A stretch of 64,000 bases of DNA, taken from Marsupella aquatica (taxonomy: Eukaryota; Plantae; Marchantiophyta). The stretch is from NCBI GenBank assembly GCA_973895155.1, contig OZ316897.1:4915976-4979975 (forward strand), read 5' to 3'. The notes beneath the pieces are model-generated. The model worked only from the letters and a program-made list of their open reading frames with translations. It was not told the origin of the DNA and searched no databases. A program made the translations under genes and the position numbers. Shown here one piece after another: positions 1 to 63,180 of this stretch (positions are counted from its first letter, which is position 1; each line of letters begins with the position of its first letter).

Positions 1-2823
1 CCCAAATCCTGCCAGAAGGTTGAGATTGAGCCAGGGAAATTCCTCAATATCAGTAAACATATTCAAGGAGAATTGAGGGAAAAATATATAGATTTGCTAA
101 AGCAATACCGAGATATATTTGCATGGAGTCACAAGGACATCAAAGGAATTCCCCCTTACCTTGGGCAACATCGAATTGACCTCATTGAAGGATCAATTCC
201 GATCCGGCAAAGACAATATCGGCTCAACCCTAAGTATTCCATGATGGTAAAAGAGGAAATTGACAAGTTAACGGAGGCCGGATTCATTTTTCCAGTCCTT
301 AGCAGCGAATGGGTATCACCCATTGTTATTGTGCCCAAGAAGTCTGGACCAGATGGCAAAGTGAAGATTCGTGTGTGTCAAGATTATCGGAAATTGAATT
401 CTGTGACAAGGAAAGATCATTATCCCTTACCATTCATTGACACTGTTCTTGATACAATAGCTGCTCATTCTCTTTACAGTTTCCTTGATGGATACTCAGG
501 GTATAACCAAGTTTCAGTACGAGAGGAGGATCGGGATAAATCAACGTTCACGACGGATTGGGGAACTTATGCATTTAATGTGATGCCTTTTGGGTTATGC
601 AACGCCCCTGGAACATTTCAACGAATAATGATGATCATATTTCAAGAGTACCTCCATAGATTTATAGAAATTTTTATTGATGATTTCTGTGTATATAGTT
701 CAGACAAAATCCATTTAGAAAAGCTCGGATTGACTTTCCAAAAGTGTAGAGAATCACAACTCTCTCTACACCCTGAGAAATGCTTTTTCGGCATGAGAGA
801 GGGTATCTTGCTAGGGCATGTCATATCTAGCCAGGGAATTGAGGTTGATGCTGAGAAGGTCAGAGTTATCCTACAACCTCCTTCTAATCTAAGAGAGTTG
901 AGGGGATTTCTAGGTTATGTAGGATACTACCGTCGATTTATTCGCCATTACGCTAACCTTGCCATGCCACTTACTCAACTGTTGAAAAAGGATGTTGATT
1001 ATGAGTGGACAGCCTTGAGACAGAAGGCCTTTGAAGAACTCAAAGGCAGATTAACCCGAGCTCCTGTTTTAGTTCCACCAAATTGGGAAAAGGAATTTCA
1101 CGTTTACATTGATGCTTCAGCTTTCTATATTGGAGCTGTCCTAAGCCAGCAAGATGATGATCAGAAGGATCACCCCATTTATTTTGCAAGTCAACAAATG
1201 AATGCAACAGAGAAGAATTATACGGTGACAGAGAGAGAAGCTTTGTCGGTAATCTTCTCATGCAAGAAATTTTGCCACTACTTGTTGGGGTACAAAACCA
1301 TTTTCCACACTGACCACTCTTCACTTAAGTACCTTGTTAACCAAGCAGATCTTTCAGGAAGGATTGCACGTTGGGTTTTGCTTCTACAAGAATATGATTT
1401 TGAAGTACGGGTAAGACCTGGGAAGCATCATGACAACGCTGATTTCCTCTCACGATTGGAAGGCGATGAATCTAGAGAGCCATTGAATGATGATTTTCCA
1501 GATGAGACATTATGGCACATCGAGGGTGAAGAATCATGGTATGTAGACATTGTTCAAATGCTAACTCAAGGAATGTTTCCCCCTAACCTCAACCCCGAGC
1601 AACGTGCTGTTTTCTTGCATAAGGTTGGACCTTATACCTTGAAGCAAGGAATCCTCTATAAACTTTCCCCGGATCAGAAACTTAAGCGATGCTTGGAAGA
1701 ACGAGAAGTCAGGAAGGTTATTGCTGCCATGCACACGGAAGAAGCTGGAGGCCATTATGCAGTCAATGTTACAGTAAAGAAAATATGGGATGCCAAATAT
1801 TGGTGGTCCACCATGCATCGAGATACACATCAATTTATCAAGTCATGTGATCCGTGCCAACGCATGGGTAAACCCACCTCTACTTCTCATTGGCCTTTAA
1901 CTCCCATCTTACCTTTAGCTCCTTTTGAAAAATGGGGAATTGATTTTATAGGGCCTATTCAACCTGCAGCTGCTCACACTGTTAATCGATACATCATCCT
2001 AGCTACGGATTACACTACTAAATGGGTAGAAGCACGAGCCACCAAGCAAAATGATGCTGCCACTGCTGCTAAATTCTTATTTGAAGACATCATTACACAG
2101 TTTGGGTGCCCATTAGAACTAGTCAGTGACAGAGGCTTACATTTTCTAAATAATACGATCGCACATATCACTGACAAGTATCTAATTAAGCATAGAAAGA
2201 CTACCCCCTATAACCCCAAAGCAAATGGCTTAACTGAGAAGGCTAATGGATTAATGGAGAGAATTTTAATTAAGGTAGTTTCTGCACATAAGTCGGATTG
2301 GGATCAGAAATTACACTTTGCTCTATGGGCCTACCGCACCGCAGAAAAGATTACAACGCGTCGAACTCCATTTTATTTAGTCTATGGCTTGGACAGTATA
2401 GTACCCATTGAATTCGAGGTACCCACTGACCGAGTGGCCAATCCTCAACGACTCGATGTTGAACAAAGTCAAATATTAAGATTGGAAAGTTTGGACAAGC
2501 TCGAGGAAGATCGACACTTCTCCTTGGTTGAAACGGAGAAGCAACAGAGAATCAGGAGCCAAAGATTTGATAAAAAATTGAAGAAGGTGGAAATACAGGC
2601 AAATGATTATGTGTTATTATATGATAACCGGTACATGATATTTCCTGGGAAATTACACACAAGGTGGCTTGGACCTTATAAGGTGCGACAAATTTTCCCT
2701 AATGGATCCTTAATCTTGGAAGATTTACAAGGTGAGGAATTACCTACCCGAGTAAATGGGTCTCGAGTCAAGAAATATCATCTTCCTTATTCAGCCGGTT
2801 TGCGAGGGCGCGACATCGTTTGA
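1..2823 (+). CDS. pol: Ty3/gypsy pol (RT-RNaseH-integrase), 5'-partial, open frame, no chromodomain
   Basis: Frame is open from base 1. RT motifs LDGYSGYNQ, MPFGLCNAP, FIDDF; RNase H IDAS...EREAL...TDH; integrase H-H-C-C, WGIDFIGP, SDRG, NGLTE; GPY motif. Domain order is RT-RH-IN. Confidence 0.96.
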   Translation, partial: PKSCQKVEIEPGKFLNISKHIQGELREKYIDLLKQYRDIFAWSHKDIKGIPPYLGQHRIDLIEGSIPIRQRQYRLNPKYSMMVKEEIDKLTEAGFIFPVLSSEWVSPIVIVPKKSGPDGKVKIRVCQDYRKLNSVTRKDHYPLPFIDTVLDTIAAHSLYSFLDGYSGYNQVSVREEDRDKSTFTTDWGTYAFNVMPFGLCNAPGTFQRIMMIIFQEYLHRFIEIFIDDFCVYSSDKIHLEKLGLTFQKCRESQLSLHPEKCFFGMREGILLGHVISSQGIEVDAEKVRVILQPPSNLRELRGFLGYVGYYRRFIRHYANLAMPLTQLLKKDVDYEWTALRQKAFEELKGRLTRAPVLVPPNWEKEFHVYIDASAFYIGAVLSQQDDDQKDHPIYFASQQMNATEKNYTVTEREALSVIFSCKKFCHYLLGYKTIFHTDHSSLKYLVNQADLSGRIARWVLLLQEYDFEVRVRPGKHHDNADFLSRLEGDESREPLNDDFPDETLWHIEGEESWYVDIVQMLTQGMFPPNLNPEQRAVFLHKVGPYTLKQGILYKLSPDQKLKRCLEEREVRKVIAAMHTEEAGGHYAVNVTVKKIWDAKYWWSTMHRDTHQFIKSCDPCQRMGKPTSTSHWPLTPILPLAPFEKWGIDFIGPIQPAAAHTVNRYIILATDYTTKWVEARATKQNDAATAAKFLFEDIITQFGCPLELVSDRGLHFLNNTIAHITDKYLIKHRKTTPYNPKANGLTEKANGLMERILIKVVSAHKSDWDQKLHFALWAYRTAEKITTRRTPFYLVYGLDSIVPIEFEVPTDRVANPQRLDVEQSQILRLESLDKLEEDRHFSLVETEKQQRIRSQRFDKKLKKVEIQANDYVLLYDNRYMIFPGKLHTRWLGPYKVRQIFPNGSLILEDLQGEELPTRVNGSRVKKYHLPYSAGLRGRDIV

Positions 2824-2831
2824 GGAGGGGG
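2822..2831 (+). promoter_or_regulatory. Polypurine tract of the gypsy element
   Basis: GAGGAGGGGG overlaps the pol stop and lies 3 nt before TGTGATA (2835). Confidence 0.8.
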
Positions 2832-2834
2832 TTA

Positions 2835-3980
2835 TGTGATAACATGGTTAAGAAGAAAGGAATAAAGAAAGTGGAAAAATTAAATTTTTTTGCCTTTGAA
2901 GCGGGAAAGAAGAACCTTAAATGCTAAGCAAACCATTATTGAAAGTCTAACAACCATTCAAGAGATTAAGAGAAGGAAAAGAGGCTCAACCGGAAGAAAG
3001 TATTTCTTGGTAAAGAGAAGGAAACCGGACCACAAACCGGAAGCCGTAAAATCGTCTCCGGACGCTATCAAGAAAATCTAACACCAGGTTCTTGAAGCCG
3101 AGGCTACGCTCTTCGTCCTGGGGAAAACCCATAAGCATTGGACTCCTGACAGTGAGCCGAAATCCCTCTTAAGGCCGAACCGGTTTTGCTCTTCTCACAC
3201 CTCTCAAAGTTGAACAGATTAAGTTTTGAGCTCCCGAGTGAATAGGCTTGTCGAAGCAGTAGTGAAAGGAGGCTCTTCCCTTCCGATTGAGGATCTTGGG
3301 TCCGGATTATAGGACCATTCTAGTTTCTATGAGAGAAAGGTATAAGAGAGCCTTGACATACTCGTGTGAGGTGGCAGCCTACTCCTACGCTTGGAGGGAA
3401 GGCTGGGGATGTGGAGATTGGCGCTAAGGCCCCCTATTTTGATAGTAATCTACTTCCGGGGCTTGAGCCGGTTTCTGAACCGGAACTGAACCGGTGGCAA
3501 ATCGGTTTCTACTATATCTCGCTTGCTGGACGTTCATTTTCGCTGACAGTGTGCTGAGATCGAGAAGGTTGGCTGATATACATGATGGAGTAATTATAGA
3601 GGCTATATTCACTTCTAGCTCCTACCTTCTGCTCTCACCGGTTCAAATCTGTTTGCTACTCCAACTACCAGGCAGTATGAAGAGTGCCAAGAGCAGTCCT
3701 TCTTCCAAGACTCAGAGTGGGACTCCAGTAAAGCCTGAAGTACGACGTTCAAAGAGGAAGGAGACTCAGATCACCATGAAGCCCTTGAGACCCCTCATTC
3801 CTACTGATGCAGCTGAGAAGGAACAGCTCTGAAAAGATCGTACACTAATGGGCTATGCCTCCTTGATGGATCTTACTTGGGGATTTATGAGTGAAGACAT
3901 GGTGAGGGAAGTGCTGGCAGGAGTTCCTCCCATAGAATTTCAGAAGACTGCACGAGCTCGACCAGAAGCTTGGACCAAGG
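2835..3980 (+). mobile_element. 3' LTR (truncated) of the gypsy element, containing an ORF
   Basis: Starts TGTGAT right after the PPT. Cut off at ~3980 where the protease of another element begins. Confidence 0.7.
3677..3980 (+). pseudogene. N-terminal part of an LTR-encoded protein of unknown function
   Basis: MKSAKSSP...EKEQL*KDRTLMGYASLMDLTWGFMSEDMVREV...PEAWTK reads in one frame across a single TGA. The GYASLMDLTW block resembles GLEAFVRLPW of the 4.7-kb element ORF. Confidence 0.5.
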
Positions 3981-4561
3981 CAGACTCTGGTGCCCAACCC
4001 TTGATGTTGGGGAAGGCAGCTTGTATTGGTTTGGGTATTCGGAGGTCAGAGTTGGAGCCATGCCCATTCCAGATTCAGACATCACTTGGAGGAGCCAGTG
4101 ATAGGTCTCACTTCATGACACGGGAGAGGGTGTCAGTGCAGATGAGGCCAGATCATGCGACTGATAGCTCTACATTAGGAGTGACTGTTGTGGTGACATC
4201 AGCAGAGTCGTATGATGTACTAGTTGGAGGTGCAGTGTTGTACCCGATGGGTTTTCAGATGGACTATTGGACTGAGAGAGTAGCCTTTAGACCTGGTTGG
4301 CAGTCTAGTGATGGACGTTTGAGCCAGGTGCCTATGAGGTTTATTTCTCGGGTTAGACCAGGAGGGACTTCCCCAGAGGTATTGGCATCAGTTGCTGGTT
4401 TTAGTGGAGTGGTCACTTGGCCAGATGATTTGTTGGAGGGTAACCTCTTAGCCATGGATTCTCCAGTCTATGAGGAGGTAGAGGAGGTCTTTAGTTTGGC
4501 GGCAGTGGTACCCTCCTTGTTGGATGTTCCACTTTGGAGTTCAAGTGGAGTGTTGAGGTAG
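3981..4561 (+). pseudogene. Retroviral-type aspartic protease region
   Basis: DSGAQPLMLG and YDVLVGG motifs; homologous to LDIGAQPLMLG / YDVLVG in copy 2. Confidence 0.75.
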
Positions 4562-4573
4562 AAGGCTGATCAT

Positions 4574-5680
4574 TTGATATCACAGGCTTGGAGTACACCC
4601 TTTGTACCTGTGGAGGTAGAGGAGGCTCCAAGACGAGCTCCTACTGGTGGTCCAGTGGGGTTGTCTCCTTTGGATACAACACCCATTGTTTGGGAGTATC
4701 CACCAGAGGGTATTTGTGTGTTGGACCTCTTTGGTGGGATTAGCACTGGTTTGGCTGCAGTGTTGCAGGCCGGGATACTTGTGAGGAAGTATTTGTATGT
4801 GGAGAGAGATGAGACCTCGAGGAGGGTTTCATCACGACATCTTGCATTGTTGATGCAGAGATACCTTGAGTTGTTGTCACAGTCCGCAATTCGAGGGTAT
4901 CAATGGAGTTTGCCATCAAACATTTCATTGTTGGGGGCGCAAGACCTTGAGAGGGTTGGCCCTATTGATTTGGTGATTGCTGGATGGCCATGTCAGGGAC
5001 ATACTCGGGCTGGTCATGGTGGAGGGTTACGTGAACCTCGTTCTCATATGTTTTGGGAGATGTTGCGGGTGTTGCATCATCTTCAAGTGCATCAGGCACG
5101 TGCTCCAGCTTACATTCTGGAGAATGTCCCTTTGATGGGTGATACTAGATCTCATGTGATCACGGCTGCACATGAGGTACGGTCATGGATTGGGCCAGCT
5201 ATTTTGTTGGATGCAGCGAGGGTGGGCTCACGTGCACATCGTCCACGGTTGTGGTGGACGAACTTGTTACCCAGGGAGCTTTTGAGGCGCGCCTATGATG
5301 CAATCCAGCGGCCGCTATCTCTCATCGTGGATAGTATTTTGGATGGTGGACGACGTTCTCAGGTGGTGAGAGCAGTGGATAGGTCACCCATGGCAATAGT
5401 GAACCTTGTGGGGCAGCCTAGAATGGCTTTGCCTACATTTGTGAGTTTTCCCTCGTCACATGCCTATAGGGATGGTGGTCCTGGGCTTGTATGGGATTCT
5501 CATGTGCGCCAGTTGGTGGAGCCCAACGCCGATGAGAGAGAGAGCGTGCTATGGGGTTTCCTACCGGTGTGACATTAGTCTCTTCAGTTTCAGAGGCATC
5601 ACGTCGCCAGGTGTTGGGTCAGGCTATGGACCTGAACTGTTTGACGTGGATTGTGAGCCTTGCAATGGCCGAGCAGCGGA
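4574..5680 (+). pseudogene. C5 cytosine DNA methyltransferase domain (DNMT3-like), frameshift near 5540
   Basis: Motif I VLDLFGGISTG, II YVERD, IV AGWPCQ, VI ILENV, VIII HRPRLWWTN, IX EPNADERE, X RRQVLGQAMD. Confidence 0.9.
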
Positions 5681-5913
5681 GACTTAGGACCATGTCTGTG
5701 GTTACTTCACCCCTGGTGATGAGCTCGTTGCCTTCCGGGATGGTAGAGGCATCGGCTGGGGGCAAGGAGAGTGGTAGTTTTCATCCTTGGAGTACATGGG
5801 ATGTGATGGATGGGCATGTAGAGTTGGTGGCCCATGTTGGTGGAGGAGTTGTTTGCTCAAGTGATGGTGTAAAGGAGCATGTGCCATCGTCTGAGGAGGT
5901 GGCATAGCAACCA

Positions 5914-7540
5914 ATGGCATTGTCCTCTTCCTCTAGTGTACCGGTAGAGGAGACTTGGGAGCCATCACTTGGACCCAAGCTGACAGGAGGTGAACGACGA
6001 CAGTTGACACAATTCCTACGTGCTTATAGGAGTTGTTTTGCCTTTAGCATGAAGGAGTTGGGTGCTTTGGTGGGACCTGGTATACGGATTGATTTGGCTA
6101 GTGATACGCCAATGAATCTTTTGTCGTCCCTACAGATATAGTGATATGGAGAGGGACTTGATTCGGAGTAAGACGTTGGACCTTTTGGAGGCTGGATTAG
6201 TGGAGTTGTCGCATGGGGAGTATACGTCAGCCACTGTCATGCCTGTCAAAAAGGATGTGCATGGCAACTACACAGAGAGGCGGATGTGTGGAGATTACCG
6301 TCCTATCAATCGGCAGACAAAGGCCGATAGGTATGCCATGCCCACACCTGAGGAGATCTTTGATGTGGTGGGACCTGCAAGGATTTTCAGTACTTTGGAT
6401 CTTCGGGCAGGATACCATCAGTTGCCAATTCGAGTGAGTGACAAGGCCAAGACAGCATTTTGGGGAGTCAACTCATATGGCAAGGATTGTTTGTATCAGT
6501 GGCGATTCTTACCCTTTGGGTTGAAGAATGCACCTGTCGAGTTTCAGAGAGTGATGGACAGGATCCTAGCAGGATTGGATTTTTTTCGGTGTTACATTGA
6601 TGATATCTTGGTGTTCAGTGATACTGTGGAGGAGCACCAACAACATTTGCAGATTGTGTTTGAGCGATTGAAAGCTCATGGTCTACGTTTACATCCAGGA
6701 AAGTGTAGGTTCTTCCATGAGGATGTTGAGTACTTGGGTCATGTGATCTACCCAAGTGGTTTGGGGGTCCAACAGGCAAAGGTTGAGGCTATTGCACGTA
6801 TTCCTCGGCCGACAGATGTGAGTAGAGTTCGGGCATTCATGGGATTGGCGAACTACTATCGGCGATATGTGAAGGGATTTAGTGCTATAGCAAAGCCTTT
6901 GAACAAGTTGTTGAAGTTTAATCAGGAGTGGCAGTGGGGAGATGACCAGGAGAGAGCTTTTATGGAGCTCAAGGCCAAGTTGGTGTCTGCGCCTATCTTG
7001 AGGAGACCTATTAGGGGTCGCCCATTTCAACTGCACACTGATTGGAGTATGTTGGGGATTGGAGCGGTGTTGACACAACATGATGATGAGAACAAGGAGT
7101 TTGTGGTGGCCTATGCAAGTTGTTCAAACAATGCAGCAGAATCAAGCTATGGTTCGTACGAGGGAGAGTGCTTGGCAGCAATGTGGGCTGTGGCACACTT
7201 TAGGTGTTACTTGTTTGGCACAGAGTTTACCCTTGTTACTGATCACCAACCGCTCAAGTGGTTGATGGAGTTTGATAAGCTTACAGGAAAGCTTGCACGG
7301 TGGGCTCTTATCTTACAGGAGTATGACTTTCAGGTGGTACATAGACCTGGAGTTACCAACCTTGATGCTGATGGGTTGAGTAGGAACCCATGTCCTAGTC
7401 AGGAGGATGATACTGGAGCTAGATGGCATGGAGAGGTTGATGAGGAGATGGTGCCAGGATGGCATGCATCTGCCTTTTTGTGTTTGTTGGGTGTGAACTC
7501 TAGTATGGAGGATCACCTTACACCCCCTTCCTCTAGTTAG
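5914..7540 (+). pseudogene. Reverse transcriptase + RNase H
   Basis: LDLRAGYHQ, LPFGLKNAP, YIDD, LHTDWS, TDHQPL, DADGLSR; frameshift near 6120. Confidence 0.93.
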
Positions 7541-7615
7541 AGGGTAGATGGCCAGCCTGCAGATCCGGAGGTTGGAGATGGTGCTACAGATCAACGTGAT
7601 ATTCATGATGATGCG

Positions 7616-8699
7616 TTGGTGTTAGAGTTCCTACGGACCAGTAGGGTGCCAGGCATAGTGAGTGCCAAGGAGCGAGACCGTGTTCTCCAACGGGCTAGGA
7701 GGTACCGATTGGAGGGAACACATGTTCTCCATGTGTGGGAGGATGGTAGAGTACGAGTGGTACCCCATATAGCTCAGAGAGAGCGCATTGTGCGACATGC
7801 TCATGAGGAGTTGGGACATTTTGGAGTAAAGCATACGTATAGCTTACTTCTTGGTCAATATTGGTGGCATGGCATGCACACTCAGGTGAAACAGTTGGTG
7901 TCACATTGTATGGTTTGCGATCGGGTGAGGGCATCGTTCAATGCCCCTACACCACAGTTACACCCCTTACCTATTATGGGGTTGGGTTACCGTTGGAGTT
8001 TGGACTTTGCAGGACCATTACCGTCTAGGCGGCATCATCGGTATGCGTTGGTGATGGTGGAGCACTTTTCTAAGTGGATTGAGTTGGTGGCATTGCCTGA
8101 CAAGGCAAGTGAGGGAACGTCGTATGCATTTCTTGATAGAGTGCTTAGTCATTTTGGTGCACCAGCGGAGGTGTTGACCGACCAGGGTATGGAGTTTCAG
8201 GGTGAGTTTCAGGTCTTGTGTGACAAGGCGTTGATTGATCACCGGACCACATCTCGAGATCATCCAGAGGCGGATGGTTTGGCAGAGCGTGTTGTTCAGA
8301 CGGTGAAGAGGGGATTGTGCAAGTATGGCCTACAGAAGGGGCATCTTGGAGATTGGGACAATCATTCAGTTGCCATGGTTAGCCATGGGGTATAGGTTCA
8401 GTCGTCAAGCATCCTTGGCTTCCTTCTCACCTTATTTTTTGTTGTACGGCTGAGACCCAGACTTGCCCACAGCAATTTGTCGAGATTCTAGTGAGGTGGT
8501 GAACCTTGATGACCCGGAGGTGTGGCTGAGGGTGTGTTCTCAAAGGGCACAGCTCTTTCAGAGAGTTATGCCAGCAGCCTTTGAGAACCTTGCCATTGCT
8601 CAACACAGAGATACGTTGCATTATGCAACCATCCGGGGTGGAGGTTATCAACCATCCATTCGTAGGTTCCATGTGGGGGACTATGTCTATTTGCAGTAG
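7616..8699 (+). pseudogene. DDE integrase
   Basis: HEELGH...CMVC, WSLDFAGP, TDQG, DGLAER; frameshift and stops after 8360. Confidence 0.92.
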
Positions 8700-8714
8700 A
8701 CTGCACCAACAACG

Positions 8715-9041
8715 TTGGATGTGACGGCAAGACGCACTATCTTACGTGTGAGAGAGGTGTTGGCTTCTGGAGTTCTCATGTTGGAGGGTCGTGATGGTGT
8801 TGTTTGGAAGGACCATGTGCATAATTGTGCGCCATGTCACCTCCCAAACGTGGATGGTACAGTGGACCCCAGCTTGGCAGTGATACGTGCTAGCTTGAGG
8901 TGCATGTTGTGTGGGTCTGCTAGTGAAGCAGCCCGTATGTTGGTTTGTGATAGATGTTCTAGGGGTTGGCATATGTCATGCTTAACTCCACCTATTGATG
9001 TTGTGCCTATTGGACGGTGGGTTTGTCCTCAGAGTACTTAG
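8715..9041 (+). pseudogene. Integrase C-terminal region with PHD finger
   Basis: CMLC...CDRC...WHMSC...W.CPQ(S) fits the C4-H-C3 pattern, with the last Cys mutated to Ser here and intact in copy 2. Confidence 0.85.
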
Positions 9042-9211
9042 GAGGTGGATGATTTGATCTTCACATGGTATGGATTGCAGATGGGCGATTAACGATGGGG
9101 CAACATAGCACCCGGCCTTCTGATCCGTGCACCCACAAAGGTGTATAGCATGTAGTAGATGGATAGGGCTACCTGGGAGTTAGAGGGACCTAACTGCCAG
9201 TTTAGGGGGCG

Positions 9212-9801
9212 AGTTGCGGTACACTGTCTTGTATTTGTGTATGCTCTTGTCCATGTTATGCATGTATGTGAGTATGGCATGACCAGCAATGTATGTTGTA
9301 TGACGATGTGAATTCGCACGACAGCTGTCATGACCATACGTAGCGTGCTAGACTATGTAGTGTGCTAGCGGAGTCCATACCTTAGATGGGCCGTAGTGCC
9401 TAGTTAGGAGTCTGGTTCCATGGTAGAGGGTTAGAGGGGGTGCCCTGTTGAGGGTGACTCCTCTAGTAGGACCCGCCCTCAGGGTTGGAGGGTATAGTGT
9501 GGAGAGGCTCAAAGGACGGTTAGTTCTTTGAGTTGAGCCTTTGGCGTTGGGAGAGCCTTGGTAGTGAGTGGAGCTCCTTGGCTATGGTGTCCCGTTAGCT
9601 TCGACCTAGATTCTCCATTGTGGAGTGGGTTTAGCTTGACTGTGTGTGTTCTTACGTGTTTTATGACAGTATGTCTTTCACGGATTTCTAGTTGCGGTAC
9701 ACTATCTTGTATTTGTGTATGCTCTTGTCCATGTTATGCATGTATGTGAGTATGGCATGACCAGCAATGTATGTTGTATGACGATGTGGATTCGCACGAC
9801 A
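9212..9801 (+). repeat. Terminal A-gc-B-A structure: 112-bp direct repeats 9212-9323 and 9690-9801
   Basis: The two copies differ at 2 positions. Junction CACGACA-GC-TGTCATG at 9317-9332. Confidence 0.9.
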
Positions 9802-10701: not shown

Positions 10702-13700
10702 TTATGGATCCTCTATGAACTTGCTTGGCCATAATACCAAAGAACCTGCAGCATCTCCAAGTGTCTTTTGAGGAGGATCATCATTTGTGTTTGGAATGGG
10801 AAGGACAGCTTTAGGTTTCACTAGTAATGTGACTAACACTACTGAATAACCTGGGGGAATCCTCTTGCCATGGAACGTTGTGGAACCAACCTGCACTCTG
10901 GCAAATCCTACTCGTGTTCCACTCTCATCAACAGCTAACAAGCCACTTTGTCCCTCAGCATTAGGTGCTTTCCCCACTTCCACCTTAGATCTTTCTGCCA
11001 GCACTGTTCTTGGAGGTTTGTATGAAACCTTTGACGTGGCTCTGCTCCCACCAGCAGACTTGCTTCGTGTGCGCATGCTTCCTCTCTTCATAGTAGTGAA
11101 GCTAGGCTCAGTAGGTTCCTCTGTTAGGACTGTCACAGTAGCAGGTTCATCACCTGGGAGTGTCATACCAACTAACTCTTTGGTTGGATTTATCTCAACA
11201 AGAGGCACACCTGTCATTGAGAATGATACATTCTGCAAATCATTTATCTCTGCAATGGAGTCAAGATCTACATAGCATGAATCTGGCTCAATGGTATCAT
11301 TGTCATGCTTGCTGATATCCTCATTTGCCCCAACATTGATATCATCCACTCCCTTGCCAATGTCATCCTCATCCAAACATGGTTGACTGCCCTCTGTCAA
11401 ACAAGTTGCTTGTACAGACTGCAACTTTGTTGCCTCTAAATTACAGCGAGTATTTGCCAGGTTCTCATACTTCTTCTCTGTAGCACCTGTCTTATTCTCT
11501 ATGGACACAACAACCACAATATATGTTACTGAAAATAACACATTCAACAAACAATGTCAATTCAAACTATACATTTAATAATCATATCCCACATAGTTGT
11601 AAAGGCCTTACCTTCAAGCCTACATGTCGTTGGCATGCCAGAAGAGTGCATCGACTTTGCCACCTCAATGGTGATGGTGGAACTCCTGCAGAATTGGAAT
11701 CAATTTTATCTCTCACCGACACAACAGCTTCCATTAATGTCTTGAAGTTCACATGGAACAAGTCAGTCAATGAATTCAAACGTTCATTGATCTCTGGAAG
11801 ACATGTTTCGACAGCCTTCAAACGACCACTTATCTCTGTAAGTGACGATCCACCTCCCTACATGACACAGGGGTATAGGTGCAATCACTCCATATGAAAT
11901 GTTGGGCAATATATGCACAATCAATGTTATATACAGTGTACACCTGAAATTCAACGCAGGTCATTCAATTACCAATCATAACTCATATAACTTACATGCT
12001 TGGAGGATTCAGATGCACCCTCTTGAGCCCGGGTGTTCACAATTTCAGCCCTCAACTCTTCTTTTGAAGGGCTTTGCCCCAATTGGGCTTTCTGCACATG
12101 CATGGCAAACACAAGTTATCGATCAATATTCAGGGAACGTACACTAAAAAACAAAGTTTACATGTATGGGTTTACACTAAAAAATAGTACATAGTGTAGC
12201 ATAAATTACATAGCTAGGCCATTCATTCTTACCAAACGTTTAGCTGTCGGTGCAGTGCCGGTCCTTCCTGTCAGATTAGGGTTCTGAACACTCAACCTGG
12301 CCTCGGTCATCTGTGAACTCTTCTTTTTTGAAGCATCTGTTACAAAATAAGCTACTAACCTTGCCCACACTTTATCATCACAACTGGCTGGTGGAGGCAT
12401 ATCTGGCTTCTCCCCACCTTCCTTCCAAGCCTTATGCATTCTCCACCTCTCTTGCTTGATAATTTTACCTGCTGTACTCTCTAGGCAACCTATGTCCACG
12501 CCATCATCACTGCCCACATAATTCCATTTGGCAGCAACATTTTCACATACAGTCTTCCAATCTTTTGGATGCTGTTTTTTAAAATTAATAACACTCACAT
12601 CTAACCAACGCAATACTTCAGCTTTCAAATCAGCATGCCATCGGTTCTTGCGAGGACACTCAGCATCCACCCATTGTCTCTCATTCAACTTTACGTTCCC
12701 TTTCTTTGTCACCTCCCCTCGTGCACTGCTCTCGGTAGTACTGGGCGTTGTATTGGCCACCCCTTCATTCACCCTACCTGGGGTTCTGAAGCCACCTGGG
12801 AAAATACAATGCCATTCATGCTTGAGAACTACATATAGCAGAATGGATGACGGCAACATTCAATGCTTCACTTCAAGAAAAATTCTTCAAACATACATAC
12901 CTGTAGCTCTGCCTGTAGATGCCTGTGCAGGGACTGCACTCTGAAATTGTTGCGACCCTGGACCACCTGTCCAGCCTAGTACAGGGGCCGGATGATGTCA
13001 CTTTCTAGGTATGTGTGTGCAAACATATGTACTGAAAACTAAGTACAAACTGTAGGAAAACAACTGAACATTCACCGACATACCTGTCCCCCTTCCGTGC
13101 TGCATCTGCATAGGGGCATTAGTGAATACTTGAGTCGATGGTTCGACTGTCCAACCTGCACACATACATTTTCTATCATTATACATGTGCAGAGTCCCCC
13201 CCACGTGAATGGACTCCACATATAATGAGTTCTTCCATTGCTGACAAGATCAGACATTACCTGCTCCTCTTCCAGCGTTTGTAGGTACTGAATTTTGATA
13301 TCCCTGCCAATTACCTTCACCACCTTCCCAACCTTGTTCATTCCACGACCCACCACCATCCTCCCAACCTGGTTCAACCCATGTCTGTCCTTGTGGACAT
13401 TGGAACTGATCATTACTAGCATTTGCCCAATCAGGTTGGGCAGAATCTGCATGCAATGGCAGGTGGACAGAATTTCATGTTGTCTGAATCCAATACATCC
13501 CAAACAATGTCAAAAATTGATATGCAGTCTGAAATTCAGGAGTGCCATGCCTTCACAAAGAACTGGCATATAGATATATACTCACATCCCCACGGTTGAG
13601 GTGGACGTCCATACCCACGAGATTGTGGGTTTGGACCTGCTCTGCCTCTACCACGGGCATAACCTAGAGCTTGCCCCCTGCCATAGTATTGGGCACCAGC

Positions 13701-14491
13701 CTGGGATCTACCACTACTACCACCTCGCCAACCTTGATCAGAGGTCAGCCCCCCCTGCTGGTATGGTGCATGCACAGGCTTCGAAGGCAAAACAGAACTG
13801 GCAGGACGCTGCATCACATCACCAACTACAATGTCAGGAACTAAGCAAGGTACATATGTGTAGTACTGAACATATGAAACCTCTAAACAAGAGTTTTTAA
13901 CTCAAAACCTTGTTGGGAAAACTACTTACATGTTTCTTTTGGGGCTGCTCTGCAATGTATTCATCTTCATAACCCCCATCCTCATCCATTTCCTCTGGAA
14001 AATACTCATCATCTGCATCTTCTTGTCTAGTGTTTGCACCCACCTGTGCAGCATCAATGTCATCTCCACATTCTGCCATTGTAGGTACGACCTTCTTGCT
14101 CAACCTGTCACTCCGACGCACAGGCCCAGAGATAGTGTTGGTCACCCTTCTTGCGTACTCCTTTTGTTTCTTTGAAAATGCTGTGGCTCTGCGACATTCC
14201 AATATGAGAATACAGTCACAATTTCAGTGCCACATTGAACTATTCATGTCACACAAACTCAGCGGAGGGGTGTAGTTGAGAATCGTTCCCTTACAATTCA
14301 GCCACATCCTTTTCCAGATCCAGTTCTGCGATTTTGGCTTTCACGTATGCTCGTTGTTCCATAGCTTTCCTTTCATACTCACACATCTCTGTGTCACTCT
14401 GTTCCATCCTACTGGACCACAAAAACATGTCATCTATGGTCACCCCGTATAACACAATGCAACCACAATCACCAGGCATCCATCCATACAT
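10702..14491 (-). CDS. Multi-exon TnpA-like (Ptta/En-Spm) accessory gene; exon boundaries approximate
   Basis: 12206-12859 RWRMHKAW..PPASCDDKVWARLVAYF..KKSSQM..NLTGRTG resembles the Ptta/En-Spm family. Last exon FHGKRIPPGYSVV..LPIP..TLGDAAGSLVLWP is typical of CACTA accessory proteins. Exons are separated by AT-rich intron-like gaps. Confidence 0.65.
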
Positions 14492-14563
14492 CTGTGTTGC
14501 TTCAGAATTACTTTATTACACATCCTTCCCCTCACTAATGTCTATGCAAACAATTCACATTAC

Positions 14564-15095: not shown

Positions 15096-15180
15096 CTCAA
15101 GATCAATTGGTTAGGCAGAGGTCCGTGTTGTGGACAACGCGTATTGCTCTTTGGGATAAATTGGCAAGGGTAGTCTATAG

Positions 15181-32688: not shown

Positions 32689-32693
32689 GCAAT

Positions 32694-32834
32694 TGTTGTA
32701 AACCATAGTTTACATATAACCCTAAGCTAAGGTTACCTTTAACCTTAGACCATGTAACCTCATGGCTATATAAAGCCACACCTTAATGAAGAGTGGACAC
32801 ATTATTCCAAGCATTGGTATCCCAACTCTTAACA
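32694..32834 (+). repeat. Copia 5' LTR
   Basis: Identical to 38568-38708. Confidence 0.97.
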
Positions 32835-38708: not shown

Positions 38709-38723
38709 GCAATCAGCTTGTAG

Positions 38724-40455
<1,732 letters not shown>

Positions 40456-47952: not shown

Positions 47953-48559
47953 TGTCATGCGCATACACATCGCTACACAACATACATCGCTTGTCACATA
48001 CATCCAGACTTAGTCACACTGCCACATCACAAACACAAGAGAATGGAATACAAGTGGAACTCATGTCCACACATGTCCAAAACCCACAATAATCTCAATA
48101 CAATCGGCACAACAATCCCGGTCCATAATACCCCATTGATCCCGCACCGATCTGATCACACATGTATGTCAAGCCAACGCACCTTGCACTACTCAAGGAA
48201 TCCACGTTACACAAGCGGAGCTCACAACCACCATAGCCACACTCAAGCTCCTCTCTCTCCAAGGCTCAACATTGAAAGATGACCTTTCAATGCCTCACAA
48301 GTGAGAAGTACCCTCTCACACAAACCTGACGGAACCTTATCGGCTCATATAGCACACATACCAAACATACAGATCTAGATAATATGATACACTCTAACAC
48401 TACCTAGAATGGTGTGACAGCTATCGTGTGCATACACATCGCTACACAACATACATTGCTTGTCACATACATCCAGACATAGTCACACTACCACATCACA
48501 AACACAAGAGAATGGAATACAAGTGGAACTCATGTCCACACATGTCCAAAACCCACAAT
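47953..48559 (-). repeat. Terminal A-gc-B-A structure: 138-bp direct repeats 47953-48090 and 48422-48559
   Basis: About 6 differences between the copies. Junction (rc) CACGATA-GC-TGTCACA. Confidence 0.9.
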
Positions 48560-51500
48560 TGCCCCCCTAGCTGGAAGTAAGGTCCCCTAACTCTAGCTAG
48601 CCATGAGTTCTACAAGGTTGATATACACCTTTTTAGGTGTGAAGATTAGGAGGCCGGGTGCAAGTGAGCCCCATCGATCACTTACCTGCAATCCATATCT
48701 GCCAAGAGAACACAAATGATAACTAGTCGGCTTCACCGACACTGAGGACACAACCATGATCCACTAGGAATCACCTGCAATGGTGGTGTCAAACATGACA
48801 TGTGCCATCCTCTAGAACACTTATCAAAAATCAACATAGTAGCTGCTCCCTGCGCAGATCCACACAACATACATTTCAAGCTAGCACGAACATGTGCCAA
48901 ACTTGGATCTACTATACCATCAATGTTGGGAAGGTGACATGGTGCACAGTTGCGCACATGATCCTTTCAAACCATACGATCGCGTCCCTCCAACATCAGG
49001 ACACCAGAAGGCAACACTTCATGCACACGTAAGATTGTTCGGCCTACGGTCACATCAAGTGTTGTAGGTGCTGTCTACTGCAAATAAACATAATCACCAA
49101 GATGAAATCGTCGAATGCTTGCATGGTAACCTCCTCCACAAATAGTGGCATACCTCAAAGTATCACGATGTTGGGCAATGGCAAGGTTGTCAAAAGCCAT
49201 GGGCATCACTCTCTGAACCAGAAAAATCCAAACTCCAACGATATCCCAAACCCATGATCGGCAACGGGTGCAACTGGGGAGTGGGAGCATTAAATGATGC
49301 TCTCACTCTATCACATACCACACTTAGCTATCAACTGCTGGACATGAGTGTGCATACCACCCACCAATACTGTGTCTGTAGCAAGCTGTAAGTGCGCTTC
49401 ACACCAAAGTGACCCAACTTCTCGTGTGCATGTCACACCAAATGTACTCGTTGTGATGGTTTTGGTACCACCAACACCCTACCATCATGCAGTACTCTCA
49501 AAAGATGGTTTCCCTCCCATCAAAACCTCTTGGCTCTCTGTAGAACCCTGTCACATTCTTTGGCATCAACATTGCCAACAATAGAACCACTGCGCAGATA
49601 TTCCAACACTCTCACATCATTGTGAATATCTTGTTGTCCAGAAATTACCTCACCAACATCCACATTTGAAGACTCATCATCCACTCCATCCAATGAGATA
49701 GAGTCCATAGATCCATTGTATGCTGGCACCCAACAAAGAAAGGCAGATGCATGCCATCCTGGCACCATCTCCTTATCTGACTCATCATGCCATCTGGCTC
49801 CAGTCTCATCCTGCTGACTGGTACATGGGTTGAGGCTTTGTCAACCCATCTGCATCCAAGTTCATCTTTCCAGGTCTATGTACAACCTGGAAATCATATT
49901 CCTGCAACAACAATGCCCATCATGCAAGCTTCCATGTAAGCTTGCACGACTCCATTAACCACTTAAGAGGCTGATGATCAGTGATCAAGGTGAAGGGGTT
50001 ACCAAACAAGTAGCAACGAAAGTGTGCAACAACCCACACTACTGCCAAACACTCTCCCTAGCCTCATAAGAGCTATACTTAGCCTCTGTTGAATTGTTTG
50101 ATCTACTAGCATAAGCCACAACAAACTCATTCCCCTCATCATCCTTTTGAGTCAGCACTGCTCCAAGTCCTACTCCACTCCAATCAGTGTGTAGCTGAAA
50201 TGGTCTGCCTAAAATGGGTCTTCTCAAAATAGGGGATGATGCCAACCTTTGCTTCAACTCCTGAAAGACATGCTCCTTGTCATCACCCCAAATCCATTCC
50301 TGATCCAACTTAGTGAATATGGTCAAAGGTTTAGCAAGCTGGCTAAATCCTTTAACATACCTCCTGTAGTAGCTCGCCAATCCCAAGAATGCACAAACTT
50401 TACTCACATCAGTAGGACAAGGAATCTGTGTAATGGCCTCCACTTTAGTCTGCTGTACACCCAATCCCCCTAGGTATATAGTGTGGCCCAAATATTCAAT
50501 CTGGTCTTGGAAGAACCTACACTTGCTAGAATGGAGCTTCAACCCATGTGCTCTCAATCTCTCCAACACAATTTGCAAGTGCTGTTGATGTTTTTCCACA
50601 ATAGAAGAATAGACCAAAATATCATCAATATAGCATCTGACAAAATCCAAACCTGCAAGGATTTGATCCATGACTCTCTGGAACTCAGCTGGTACATTCT
50701 TCAATGCAAATGGAAAGAATAACCACTAATACAAATGATCTTTGCCATAAGAATCAATCCCCCAGAATGCTGTTTTGGACCTATCAACGTGCCTAATTGG
50801 AAGCTGATAGTACCCTGCCCTCAAATCCAATGAACTGAAAACCTTTGCATGCCCCACAACATCAAAGATCTCCTCAGGTGTGGCCATGGCATATCTATCA
50901 GATTTTATCTGCCATTAATGGGTCTGTAATCACCACACATGCGCCTATCTGTGTAATTGCCATGCACATCGGCAATATCCTTCTTGGCTGGCATCACTAT
51001 GACAGATGCATACTCCCCATATGAAATCTCCACCTCCAAATCCAGCCTCCAACAAATCTTGAGTTTTGCTTTGAATCAGAGCTCTCTCCATGTCATTGTA
51101 ATGGTATGGCCTACAAAAGATTGGTGCATCACTAGCCAATTCAATCTGAATACCAGGACCCTTTAATGTCCCCAAATCCTTCATGCTAAATGCAAAACAA
51201 TTCCAGTTCCTCTTCAGGAATTGATGCATGCGACGTCTCTCCTCCCCTGTCAACTTAGGGCCAAGCTGTGGTTCCCAACTCTCCACCAAATCCCTAATAT
51301 CTCTTTGTAGGGTAGAAGAGATAGCCGACGATTGCTATTTAGCAGTAAATTGAGCAATCCCTTTCTGCTCAACAATCTGTCCAGCCTTGGCCAATCCTGC
51401 CATAGGTCCATAAATTGTCTGCTCGCCCCCAGCTGTGGTCAATACTGTCTCAGTGGACCACAAGCTCACCAAGGGACAATCAATAATTCCAGTAGAGCGC

Positions 51501-52104
51501 ATCCGTAATTGTTCAACTACTCCCAAGCTGATAATTCAAGTCAAACAATTTAGATCCATTGCTTGACCAAGAACCTGGCGCCACAAACCCTCTGACATAG
51601 AGGCAACTGCAGTGGTGCCAGTAAAAAATCCCATAGCATGCTCTCTCTCATCAGCAGTAGGTTCCACTAACTGCTGGAGAGCTGTGTCCGACACAAGTCC
51701 AGGGCCACTTGCTATGAATGCATATGAAGCATAGTGGCTTACAAGAGTGGGTAATGCACAACGTGGGCGCCCAACTACATTGACCATTGCCAATGGAGGG
51801 CAATCAGGGTGGGTCACACCCTGTGCATGACGCCCTATATCCAAAATATCATCCACCACTAAGGCTGGTGAGCGTGGAATGTTGTCAAATGCACGCTTGA
51901 GCACCTCACATGGGATCAAATTAGTCCACCACAAGCGTGGACGATGTGCATGAGAACCCACACGTGCAGCATCCAATAAGACAGCAGGTTGTGATGCCTA
52001 GACAGGAATCACTCGGCCGGTTAAGTGGGTAAAGCAGGAAGGCACCCTAGGAACACCTTAGTATAGTGACAAAACAAGGAAAATATAAACAATTAGGGGC
52101 AACC

Positions 52105-55757: not shown

Positions 55758-58046
55758 CGGTGCAAGGGCGCCGTTCCTTTTAGGGAGGGCGGACGTGGAG
55801 GGAGGAGGCGTGAGTGGGCAGGGCGGGCACGGATCTCCACGTTTAGGATTAGGATCAGAACCAGGAGCGGCCCTGACACTTAGCTTAGTGGGATTGCGGT
55901 CCCACTGGTAGGAGCAACACTTGTGCTCCTGCCTTGCTGTACATAGGTAGATTCGGGCAAGTAGATTACTGTTAAGTAGATTAGGCTTACGATGCAAAGA
56001 ATGGCGGATCCACTACCAGGATAAGTACCTGGGCAGCGGGGAGCTCAGGGCCTCTTCTTTAGCAAGTTTTTAGTTTGCACCAGCCGGGCTGGGATCAAGT
56101 AGTACGAGAAGCTCTCGGTTAGTCATACAGTGACCCTTGTGTATATTCATGTTTCCTCATGCCTAAGAGCTGAATAGAGTTGGCCTCACGGCTTAGTTCG
56201 CAGAACTTGTGTATGAGATGTACTGTTTGTATGGCAAGTGCATGGTATGACTCAGTCAGAATGAGTCATTTTGCTATTTGTGTGTCGCATTAACTTGTGT
56301 GAAGAGTGCCCACATCAACAGAAGGAAGGAAAGTAAGCAGGGGAGTGAGAGTTGGATGTGTCGAGCTGAGAGAGGTCTTAGCGGCTTAACCAAGCCTATT
56401 GGGGATCATTCCGGCGGCGGAATCCAAACATACCTAACAAGACGGAGGGGAAGACAGGGGAAGACAGGGGAAGGCCTATATTAGGCCGGCTACGTATCTC
56501 ATGACCCGATGAAGGATCTGTCCAGTATATGTGTGTAAAATGTTAATAGTAGTAGTAGAAGGTTAGCAGCGTCCCATGCCGCTAAGCCGCGGAAACGGCC
56601 TCGCCAAGCACGAAACCTGTGGGAATCGGCTTGAGCTGGGGGGTTTCTTGGGTTTAGGGAGCCATGGGACGCACCACACAGGTCCAATCCAAGACCTCAC
56701 TTGGTGAACATTGGCAACAATCCGACTATGATCATCACCTAACAATGGCACATTCTCCAAAATATATGCTGGAGACTGTGTTTGATGTAGCTGGAGATGA
56801 CGTAGCACCCGTAACATCTCCCAAAACAATGCAGAGCGTGGATCATGAAGTCCATGCACAACGCCAGCTCTAGATTGGCCCTAACATGGCCAACCAGCAA
56901 TCACCAAATCAATGAGGCCAACACAATGTAGATGATCCGCCCCCAGCAATGAAATATTAGCAGGTAGTGCATGCTGATAACCATGAACAACATCCACTGG
57001 CAGCAACTGTGGATATCTATCCACCAACATAGCCACATGTCGCAATGAGACCCTCTGTGCTGTCTCGTCTATCTCCACATACAAATAATGACGCATAGGA
57101 ATTCCTGCCTGAAGAATAGCAGCCAATCCAGTGCTAATCCCACCAAAAAGATCCAACAAACAAATACCCTCCGGTGGATAGTGTCAAGCAATAGGAGTGG
57201 TATCCAATGGTGAAAGAGTCACCGGTCCATCTGCAAGAGACTGCTCTGCTCATAACTCTGGTGTAAAAACATGACACCATGCATTATGTACCAATCGTGT
57301 TGCTACTGCCTGTGGCAAGGCTTGTGTAGTGCCCCACACTGGTGGCACAACACTGCCAACAGGTAATCCCCGCATGATGTGCTCCTCATGAGACTCCTCC
57401 AATGGTGGAACATCTGTTGCATGCGCATTACCCTCAATCAAATCATCAGGTCCAGTAATTACACCATTGAATGCTGCCAAAGACAATGGTGTGGATTTAG
57501 GGCCTTCCACAGGTCCACTAAATCTCACTAGCAATTTGCTCAATCGACCATCTTCTGACTGCCAATCAGGTCTATATGACACTGATTCCTCCCAAAAATC
57601 AAGAATAAATCCTATGGGGTAGAGCATTGTACATCCCACCAACACATCATATGACTCTGCCTTAGTCAAAATAGCTTGTGCTTGTATCTGTGAGCTATCT
57701 ATGGTATGACCTTCCTGGATCCTCAAATCAAGAGGTCTCCTGGTAATGTGCTATGTGTAGGTCCCCCCAATGAAGTTTGAACGGGAAAGGGACAATCCTC
57801 CAAATCCTCTGGACGCAATCCCAATCCACGTATGGCAGACTTACCCAACATCAAGGGCTGAGCACCAATATCCAGTAACACCCTCTCTGGCTGGTATACT
57901 GCTCCAGAAGGCCCAACTAATTGGAAGATACCACTCCGATTATCCAATGATATAACACTAAGTTTAAACCTAGTCCTCTCAAATGCAGGGCGTGCTGGTA
58001 AATCCACCAACCTTGCTACTGTTGCATGCCATGTCTCACTAGTAGT

Positions 58047-60668: not shown

Positions 60669-63180
60669 GTAGTAGTAGGTGGCATGGTCTTCACTACTTC
60701 AACACTGCAAGCTGCTTCTGCATAGGAAGCAACCACTGGAGTGTCCTCACAGAGTGTAGCTGCCAATCTGAACACTTCTACAAGACCAACTCCCAAGTTC
60801 AGCATGTCTATCACTGAAAATAATGGGGTGCGTACCATGGCAGTAGCCTCCCCCAGCAAGGTACCTGTCATCCGTGTTGCATCACTACCTGATTGTGCCA
60901 ACTTACCCACGCCAAGGTTTGTCCGAACCGGGTTCATAGAGGTACTCTAAACTGCCTCTGACAATGTAAAAGAGTAAGGAAGCTTTGTCTATCGACGTGC
61001 ATCCCCCCTCTGTGGATCTAACTCCACTACTGCTCCTCGGGGCTCAAGAGCTTTGGCTGCCCCACGTGTCAAAGCTGCTGATGCATCAATATGTGCAGTG
61101 CCACACATGAATCCCATGGTGGCAAGGTCTCCATCAGCTCCATAAGATGTGGAAGGACCATGGGATGTGGAAGGTCCATAGGACGTAGATGCCCCATCAC
61201 CAGAAGTAGGTCTCACCTGGGAACTAGCCATGGGAGCTAGCTGTTGCTCCAATTGAGCAATCTTAGCATCCTTTGGATCTATGGTTATAGCAGGGGCAGC
61301 GTCACCTCCCTGTATCCCTGCATGTGGCATGCCACGACCACATCCACCACCTCTACCTCCTCCTCCTCTTCCCTGATCATGCGTACGAGATCCTCCTCCT
61401 CTCCGTAACTCAGGATGGAGTGAGAAACACCTATCCTTGGTGTGTCTAGGAGCTCCACAGTGATCACATTGTTGCTGATCAAGCGCTGATGCTCCCCCTG
61501 ATCCTCTATGATCTGGGCAATATATCTGTGCATGATCCCCACCATAGGTCCAACATCCTGACTGTTGTCCAGCATAAGAGGGCATAGGTCTCTGGCTGGT
61601 AGACTCTTGTGCAGTAGGCTTCTTCCTCTAGCTCTTCCGTGCAGTAGGCTATGGTGTGGATGTAGATGCAGCCTTTGGTGCTTCCTTGGCAAATCCGGAA
61701 GTCACCACCTTCTCATTCACCATATTGAGCTCAATACGCTCAGAAAGGGTAAAAACAACTACTAGTGTGGGACTGCATCCCTAAGTAGAGTGACATCTCT
61801 CACTCTGCGTCGTAATTCTCTGTCCAGAATTGCATACCAAAACTGGACTGCCTGAGCCTCTGTCACTCCCTTGGTGACAGTGATCAATCTGCGCATACGA
61901 GTGTATGCCTCACGTAGACTCTCTCCAGTCTTGCGCTGGAACTCCTGGACACCCTTCAACTTATCAGTTCTCACACCCTGATAGTTTTGCTTCAGTACCT
62001 CAAAGAATTCCACCATAGGGTTAAATGCTGGTGCAGCTCAAGTCCCTGTCACAATCACACCGGCAGGAGTAGCGGTGGATGCTGGTGGAGTGCTGGTGGT
62101 GGATGGTGTGCCACTCTAGCTAGTGCTACTAGAAGAAGCATCAGCTATGGCAATGGGTTGGGCAGCCGCACTAGTGCCATAGGTGATGGACACGTAATTA
62201 GGCGACCAATGCTGCCTCCATGCCTCAATCTCAACCAAATGAGCCTTCCAAAACTCATGGTAGTCATCCATGGGTGGCCCCTCCAAATGTTGAAATAATC
62301 CCTTCCATGCCATGAAAGGGGTAAACAACGTGGCATTACGCAATGTCTGCATCTCGCACCACGTATCAAACTCCTGGATGAAGTCATCCAGATCAATCGT
62401 GCCAACTGCACCAGAGTATCGTCGTGGGCCCTTCGTAGCCCCATACATCTCTTCCATATCCCACAACAAAGGTGCAATCACCTGATGATGAGGAGAACTG
62501 CTCACAGAGTCCTCGTCAAAATCACTATCTGAAGCTGTGTTGTTGACTGCTACCAATGTCACTGGCCAAAACTGCACCCCACTCTGAGTGAAACCGGTCT
62601 GTCGTCCATCGGGTAACCCAGCAGCGCCAGAAGAATCCGTGGTGACCAATCTAACCTAATCTATATGCTAACCCTAAGGGCAATCTGCTAACCCTAAGGG
62701 CAACACAAGCACTCACCATGGTGTGTTGAGCATCACTCCAACATCACCAGGAGAGAAATACGTAGCACAACTAGAATGTCCGGTTGCAAACCCGGATCAC
62801 TCCTATAGAATCAAGTGCCCACGCCAAACTAACATGGCGCATAAACAGGAAGCATATGTGGAGAGGATCCAATCAACAAGAAGAGATCCACAATAACTCT
62901 CCACATCAATAGTGATCATACATCAATCAAACAATGTTCATAATGTTCAATGTGGGGCCTTCATAATAGGCCTCTCAATGTTCAATGTCGTAGCTAAGGA
63001 TCCATGCACAATTGGTTCAATCCATGCATCTAGATGGATTAAGAAGCATCAAAAACCCCAGGGAGTTTAAGATTTGGCCCAAAATGGCAATCTAAACAAA
63101 CTAGAATGTGTATAAAATGTCTAAGTGCTCATTCCATTAACATCAAAGTGGAAAGGAGTGTGTGTACACAAGAGCACTTA

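Follow-up and report, generated by a model that had tools for sequence, protein, structure and literature searches.

The window analysed here is a 64,000-nucleotide stretch of contig OZ316897.1 of the liverwort Marsupella aquatica (positions 4,915,976 to 4,979,975). The 64-kb window consists of transposon debris throughout, and no host gene was seen in it. Two decayed copies of one Ty3/Gypsy lineage, copy 1 at 3983-9801 on the plus strand and copy 2 at 47953-62655 on the minus strand, carry a C5 DNA methyltransferase (DNMT) between protease (PR) and reverse transcriptase (RT). A stop codon conserved across the family closes the first open reading frame (ORF1, Gag-PR-DNMT) ahead of RT, and the DNMT would be made with Gag, not with RT, whether RT is reached by readthrough or by splicing. 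The features of the two copies are listed below.

3983..4380 (end approximate), plus strand: copy 1 putative protease, from the catalytic Asp (DSG); tblastn with P0001, junction against relatives
4697..5690 (ends approximate), plus strand: copy 1 predicted DNMT3-like C5 methyltransferase, motifs I-X unpermuted, frameshift near 5555 before motif X; Pfam, motifs, profile
5905..5913, plus strand: conserved in-frame stop and CAA-CCA, end of ORF1, candidate readthrough site; locus alignment
5908..7400, plus strand: copy 1 ORF2 with linker, RT and RNase H (RH), frameshift near 6112; Pfam, match to a Protein Data Bank (PDB) profile
7541..9041, plus strand: copy 1 integrase (IN; HHCC, DDE core) and C-terminal PHD finger (8901-9035), stops at 8451 and 8697, frameshift near 8376; Pfam, tblastn
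9212..9323, plus strand: copy 1 repeat B1, purine-rich tract ahead, GACA at end; repeat comparison
9326..9689, plus strand: copy 1 repeat A2, TGTCA at start, GC between B1 and A2, twin A1 at the 5' end of complete relatives; repeat comparison
9690..9801, plus strand: copy 1 repeat B2, where copy 1 ends on the right, differing from B1 at 2 of 112 positions; repeat comparison
60669..62655, minus strand: copy 2 Gag, zinc knuckles present; 43-65% identity to P0001 residues 1-578 in tblastn
56679..58046, minus strand: copy 2 protease, then DNMT motifs I-VI (N-terminal part); motifs, tblastn
48735..51989, minus strand: C-terminal remainder of the copy 2 DNMT, then the conserved stop (51335-51337), RT, RNase H, an integrase with part deleted, and PHD; alignment, tblastn
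47953..48559, minus strand: copy 2 3' repeats B1-GC-A2-B2; repeat comparison

The domain order PR-DNMT-RT-RH-IN-PHD, first proposed in a reading of the letters without database searches (the sequence-only reading), holds for both copies as judged by motifs, Pfam and tblastn. In copy 1 it can be followed from the protease DSG (3983) through DNMT motifs I (LDLFGG, 4721), IV (GWPCQG, 4982), VI (LENV, 5117), VIII (AHRPR, 5234) and X (GQAMDL, 5617) to the RT YIDD box (6593), RNase H (~7025), the integrase HHCC and core region (7802-8300) and the PHD finger. Pfam matches were obtained for DNA_methylase (E 3.8e-08), RVT_1 (3.4e-31), rve (1.6e-13), PHD (8.3e-11) and the H2C2 integrase family. The best PDB match of the RT is the Ty3 RT/RNase H (E 9e-74), and the PR-RT-RH-IN order with a Ty3-type RT is that of Ty3/Gypsy. 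The copy 1 protease was undetected by Pfam, Asp_protease_2 appearing only below threshold in relatives, and its putative identity is a call from the DSG motif and homology to relatives. Of the extent first assigned to the element (3981..9041) the order stood and the right boundary did not, as the element reaches 9801. On the left, the first residue kept by copy 1 is the catalytic Asp of the protease (residue 638 of P0001 by tblastn, position 3983); Gag and the 5' repeat are gone, and the edge is joined to the tail of another Ty3 element. That neighbour (1-3982) is the 3' part of a different Ty3 element, with an open pol at 1-2823 and no DNMT or PHD match in the part present; an ORF of unknown kind at ~3678-3982 is fused in frame to the copy 1 protease Asp. 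Premature stops (4559, 7538, 8451 and 8697) and frameshifts (near 5555, 6112 and 8376) interrupt copy 1.

Copy 2 shows this order with Gag in addition and shares 66-74% DNA identity with copy 1, which bears out the proposal that the arrangement is a family feature. It is cut by two nested TG...CA insertions, each with its own 5-bp duplication and one of them within the DNMT, and a stop lies directly after the DNMT catalytic Cys. Where at least two subfamilies had been proposed, at least three diverged ones are present (copy 1, copy 2 and locus L026).

In copy 1 the frame closes after motif X at TAG 5905 (next codons CAA CCA) and continues beyond it toward RT. TAG CAA stands at the equivalent place in copy 2 (51335-51337) and in L026. 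Family-wide counts were made on 80 loci, reduced to 65 by removal of 15 near-duplicates, with L026 and L072 excluded from within-family counts. The codon matching 5905 is a stop in 46 of the 47 covering loci (32 TAG, 14 TAA; the remaining locus has TAC), and no other codon among 1,676 scanned exceeds 38% stops, the other stops of copy 1 being mostly sense in relatives (42/55, 25/25 and 15/22). The single open polyprotein of the sequence-only reading is therefore not borne out: neither copy is open, and the stop at 5905 belongs to the family and not to decay. When copy 1, copy 2, L026 and L059 are compared pairwise, each of the six comparisons shows stop and CAA identical at 6/6 positions, while in the five cross-subfamily pairs the 30 nucleotides upstream of the stop share only 8-14 of 30, for the most part close to chance level. 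All 15 bryophyte-clade database proteins picked terminate 76-98 residues past motif X, and motif X, stop and RT lie in unshifted frame in 18 of the 26 rows with both landmarks. Among seven distinct matching contig runs no differing letter was found at 5905-5910, the variant tables not being exhaustive.

The DNMT domain carries motifs I, IV (PC), VI (ENV), VIII, IX and X in unpermuted order. Its profile, compared with solved structures, matched DNMT3A best (3.6e-27), then DNMT3B, DRM (2e-14) and HhaI (6e-08). The AlphaFold model of an unaltered relative, P0192 (82% identical to the copy 2 DNMT), is confident across the domain and matched DNMT3B (Z 28.0, rmsd 2.6, 276 residues aligned) as well as DNMT3A; the preference of the fold for DNMT3 is slim, because the bacterial M.MpeI follows closely at Z 25.7. 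On profile and predicted fold the domain appears to be a DNMT3-like C5 methyltransferase, nearest DNMT3 in both respects. The catalytic Cys is retained in 63 of 64 loci and the ENV Asn in 65 of 65 (de-duplicated set).

The sequence-only reading had named the ratio of nonsynonymous to synonymous substitution rates (dN/dS) as a check, and the DNMT proved to be under purifying selection and not neutral: dN/dS between copies 1 and 2 is 0.20 for the DNMT (confidence interval 0.13-0.29), 0.13 for RT and 0.17 for RH, and the median for the copy 1 DNMT against 61 loci is 0.26. Between lineages the DNMT values (0.17-0.26) are RT-like, tempered by a dS near saturation between subfamilies. Inside the decayed loci family the ratio is 0.61, a value to be expected where decay after insertion prevails. 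The two copies have CpG ratios of 0.27-0.45, and the remaining elements of the window 0.34-0.68; this depletion was discarded as a mark of self-methylation, being confounded with age. C-to-T rates in the loci (CG ~20%, CHG ~25%, CHH ~7%) fit host silencing and are uninformative on the element's own enzyme. A viral origin of the DNMT was likewise rejected, with a single weak match in viral contigs (33%, E 2e-7).

Complete relatives are ~9.2 kb long and laid out as A1 - coding - B1 - GC - A2 - B2. Repeat A starts with TGTCA, repeat B ends with GACA, and a purine tract lies ahead of B1. In eight independent insertions with both ends called, the target duplication is an exact 4 bp in five, has one mismatch in two and is absent from one, so that the relatives show the TG...CA ends and short target-site duplications of Ty3/Gypsy; the window copies are without left ends. 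No 5' A repeat scored above shuffles for either window copy, copy 1 being truncated and that of copy 2 possibly lying past the window end. Instead of the two full long terminal repeats (LTRs) and tRNA primer site of a canonical LTR retrotransposon, the order A-coding-B-A-B is found, and no TGG-starting tRNA primer site follows A1 in the four loci viewed. Nor does the element carry the tyrosine recombinase of DIRS/PAT, its matches being to rve and H2C2 integrase. B1 and A2 are separated by GC in the two window copies and in 6 of 9 loci. Four loci (L045, L036, L035 and L064) stop after one B repeat and still have the duplication, the outcome that recombination between B1 and B2 would give.

Named close matches come from Marchantia polymorpha, M. 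paleacea, Calypogeia fissa and three Sphagnum species, and a Marchantia model shares 88% identity with the copy 1 RT; by themselves these matches make a moss or liverwort host likely. The proposed extension of DNMT-bearing elements to land plants thus stands, the nearest named relatives being liverworts and Sphagnum. Hypothetical proteins of Marchantia, Calypogeia and Sphagnum (e.g. Mp4g09160 / BBN08134.1 and CAM6115131.1) have DNMTs 68-77% identical and share the Gag-PR-DNMT endpoint, but they are annotated as host genes of unassigned function; several, Marchantia included, have an uninterrupted ORF1 of ~1,280 aa. As to earlier cataloguing, on which the novelty had been made to depend, Marchantia proteins are in public annotations with the Pfam match, the kind of element is published, and retrotransposons have captured DNMTs repeatedly, while a land-plant description was not found in the literature searched, nor were four Marchantia gene ids mentioned there.

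Further out, 633 protein clusters (50% identity) match the DNMT profile at E<=1e-30. The best 150 of these comprise 88 with an RH-DNMT-IN-PHD layout, 15 with PR-DNMT-RT and 47 with DNMT only; Closterium has PR-DNMT and DNMT-RT models. A pol of Scenedesmus sp. PABB004 and a Chromochloris model share the integrase-PHD end and have a DNMT of 35-41% identity, but their order is PR-RT-RH-DNMT-IN-PHD, several being one ORF of ~3,000 aa, and they group apart in the DNMT tree and in the RT tree. The split between the layouts has a support of 99 in the DNMT tree (Shimodaira-Hasegawa-like approximate likelihood ratio test, SH-aLRT), and the RT tree sets type B apart (98/99). DNMT and RT tree distances are correlated (Spearman 0.69, p 0.001), and type A as one clade was not rejected (approximately unbiased test, p-AU 0.52, with too few outgroups); the last tree is without 9 rows and half of type B. 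A single origin of the DNMT-bearing elements is neither shown nor rejected. A limited literature search gave no description of the RH-DNMT-IN layout (P0209, P0042 and P0203-P0215 among the examples). A Tetraselmis model, P0216, reads Gag-PR-degenerate DNMT-RT-RH, its DNMT-like part being 23% identical and seemingly without the PC motif.

UAG followed by CAR YYA is the readthrough signal of tobacco mosaic virus (TMV) and works in plants, according to the accessible text of PMC2754532, and the CAR-YYA fit is exact in copy 1 and L026. The in-frame UAG is probably read through at a low rate to yield RT-RH-IN-PHD. A fuller mechanism, which concerns the family (both window copies are dead), is favoured with reasonable though not high confidence: ORF1 ending at a leaky UAG-CAA stop would give many DNMT molecules per particle, and new cDNA would be methylated before integration. 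Gag-PR-DNMT would build the particle, the protease may release the DNMT inside it, and a minority readthrough product would provide RT, RNase H and integrase-PHD. That the cDNA is the substrate of the DNMT is rated slightly better than even. The internal B-GC-A junction could template the rebuilding of both ends, the shared GC being two extra bases trimmed by the integrase; for this part belief and doubt are in balance. The PHD finger may guide the choice of insertion site.

Several observations weigh against this account. The sixth context base does not fit in copy 2, which has TCG, or in the large loci family, where 44/47 have CCC; a stem-loop after the stop was not significant in 7 sequences (z +1.1 to -2.1), and the post-stop segment was outside the 10 most stable of 143. 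In deeper relatives (P0235, P0365, P0038 and the Closterium models) DNMT and RT share one frame, and a high DNMT dose is therefore not required family-wide. The DNMT was found in 33 of 33 spanning loci, a count biased because all loci were retrieved with a DNMT query. The Gypsy DNMT of Klebsormidium nitens gave no methylation in yeast, a result its authors call inconclusive (accessible text of PMC5890265). Many relatives also have a T-rich run ahead of the TAG, which bears on the main competitor of readthrough: RT-RH-IN-PHD could be made from spliced RNA, with the conserved TAG as a 3' splice acceptor as in Ogre and the DNMT present only with Gag or skipped in Pol. The run is seen in the loci family and in contig runs X10 and X23, and Ogre does splice between Gag-PR and RT (accessible text of PMC6317226). 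The functional triplet would then be TAG, with TAA as decay; the TAA variants (14/46) are scattered on the tree (11 changes versus 12.1 shuffled, within the range of other TAG sites), which marks them as decay and leaves an AG acceptor compatible, and they were rejected as an argument versus splicing, being unclustered. However, only 4 T occur in the 20 nucleotides upstream of the copy 1 TAG, the T-rich run encodes Val/Phe/Leu, CAA is not needed as the first exon bases, the TAG lies in the reading frame shared by the two ORFs, and the three junction-crossing spliced gene models (P0008, P0014 and P0030) use different acceptors. Splicing is thus considered unlikely, if well short of negligible. 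Reinitiation of ORF2 at an ATG six bases past the stop, by termination-reinitiation or from a shorter RNA, draws on the presence of this ATG in good context in copy 1 and 46/47 loci, but fails because copy 2 and L026 are without it; differing letters at 5914-5915 in runs X21 and X23 also speak against it, and it is given very little credence.

The methylation step faces a rival of its own, in which the DNMT is retained but acts elsewhere: on the insertion site, on other nuclear copies, or by nucleic-acid binding without net methylation. The inactivity of the K. nitens domain in yeast (PMC5890265, accessible text) agrees with this, a Gag-level product would be plentiful enough to act in trans, and the PHD finger suggests chromatin contact. 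Conversely, the conserved catalytic Cys, ENV and motif VIII argue against a dead enzyme. In other Ty3 elements fusion behind Gag-PR means location in the particle, and by that analogy the DNMT would be placed there too. A role away from the cDNA is held to be improbable, though it retains some weight. That the DNMT is a chance capture or neutral passenger and the junction stop ordinary decay is scarcely credible: both window copies are broken and the within-family dN/dS is high, but the between-lineage values match those of RT, the domain recurs in the 633 clusters, and the stop is fixed across subfamilies; as a neutral reading of the domain's conservation it is already refuted. Returning to the favoured account of methyltransferase-loaded particles, a wider scenario is doubtful, though not far-fetched. 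One Ty3 lineage would have had an active DNMT3 since before the chlorophyte/streptophyte split, the DNMT having moved between two polyprotein positions and split repeats having replaced tRNA-primed LTRs; in mosses and liverworts readthrough would throttle RT and integrase and load particles with methyltransferase, so that new copies would arrive methylated and the annotated copies would be an unrecognised source of de novo methylation in bryophyte epigenomes.

The charophyte precedent cited in the sequence-only reading is real. KnitGypsy-Dnmt3 is described, in the accessible text of PMC5890265, as an acquisition in the K. nitens lineage; that text is without mention of land plants, Marchantia or liverworts, and in it de Mendoza et al. 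2018 put forward that the algal elements methylate their own cDNA. The likeness extends to Gypsy domains, an unpermuted Dnmt3-type DNMT, purifying selection and DIRS-like A-coding-B-A-B repeats, but there DNMT and RT/RNase H share one ORF, whereas here a conserved stop lies between DNMT and RT. This comparison is with the published description of domains, repeats and ORF layout; protein searches gave no match named Klebsormidium, many matches being unnamed. SymbioDIRS-Dnmt3 also combines Dnmt3 with a retroelement, and its enzyme methylates CG in yeast (PMC5890265, accessible text); PAT/Ngaro/VIPER share the split direct repeats A1...B1-A2-B2 (PMC6681497, accessible text). All of these use a tyrosine recombinase, whereas the present family has a DDE integrase with TG...CA ends and 4-bp duplications. 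The TMV-type (type I) readthrough context UAG-CAR-YYA (PMC2754532) is matched in sequence, in full by copy 1 and L026 and in all but the last base by copy 2 and most of the loci family. In Ogre, too, ORF1 closes after the protease-side domains (Gag-PR / RT-RH-INT split), but the ORFs lie a ~274-bp intron apart there and one codon apart here (accessible text of PMC6317226). The host PpDNMT3a/b have a DNMT3-type catalytic domain like that of the element, but host DNMT3 has DUF3444 (PMC6453930, accessible text), which Pfam did not detect in the element; DRM is permuted and the element DNMT is not.

Streptophyte Gypsy-DNMT3 is mentioned, citing PMC5890265, in the accessible parts of 10.64898/2026.05.21.726589 and PMC12344493. 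No DNMT-bearing retrotransposon of land plants was found in the literature searched, which left most subscription papers and Repbase outside, and unlabelled bryophyte copies are possible in supplementary trees. A bryophyte DNMT element is not described in the accessible text of PMC5784723, PMC6453930, PMC8566409, PMC10952607, 10.1101/2021.02.12.428880, 10.1101/2021.11.30.470311, 10.1101/2022.06.16.496473, PMC6317226, PMC5009743 or PMC6681497. What is new here is that such an element occurs in land plants, that a candidate recoding site behind the DNMT is conserved, that split repeats carry integrase-type ends, and that two layouts extend over green algae and bryophytes.

Why retrotransposons retain a class of enzyme whose usual role is to silence them has been a question since 2018. 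The known hosts, Symbiodinium and Klebsormidium, are hard to manipulate, and Marchantia polymorpha has genetics and methylation mutants. As Marchantia has relatives with an uninterrupted Gag-PR-DNMT frame, the question is testable there. From the conserved stop one would expect each particle to hold many DNMT molecules, a dose unlike that of the one-ORF algal form. Five host DNA methyltransferases are counted in Marchantia (PMC5784723, accessible text), and element-borne DNMT domains fall outside this count. The split repeats may also be the reason why the family is missed by LTR surveys, which look for LTR pairs bounded by a duplication (PMC6317226, accessible text).

The insertion splitting the copy 2 DNMT (51990-56678) is one of two 4.7-kb units, the other at ~16035-20778, which are 85% identical and have TG...CA ends and 5-bp target duplications without an internal repeat pair. 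Both encode a long ORF with coiled coils and no Pfam family (at 52051-55209 it is open for 1,052 aa), and they are possibly giant solo LTRs with an ORF. Between copy 2 Gag and protease lies a 2.6-kb TG...CA insertion (58047-60668) with a 5-bp duplication, partly like 44582-45044. Broken ORFs occupy 22695-26166 on the plus strand, one with a weak N6_N4_Mtase Pfam match (25669-26163, E 2.5e-4, below cutoff), perhaps the remnant of a DNA-transposon-borne adenine or N4-cytosine methyltransferase; Marchantia has 4mC enzymes, which lends the remnant interest. A 1-kb direct repeat (28988-30031 and 45177-46206, 73% identical) is unexplained. Remnants of a CACTA-like DNA transposon, with weak Transposase_24 and DUF4216 matches, lie at 10702-15205 on the minus strand. 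A decayed Copia element with short LTRs (~150 bp, 98% identical) at 32694-38717 sits inside a long interspersed nuclear element (LINE; 31091-32726 and 38829-42238, minus strand), and a second LINE fragment is found at ~46600-47070.

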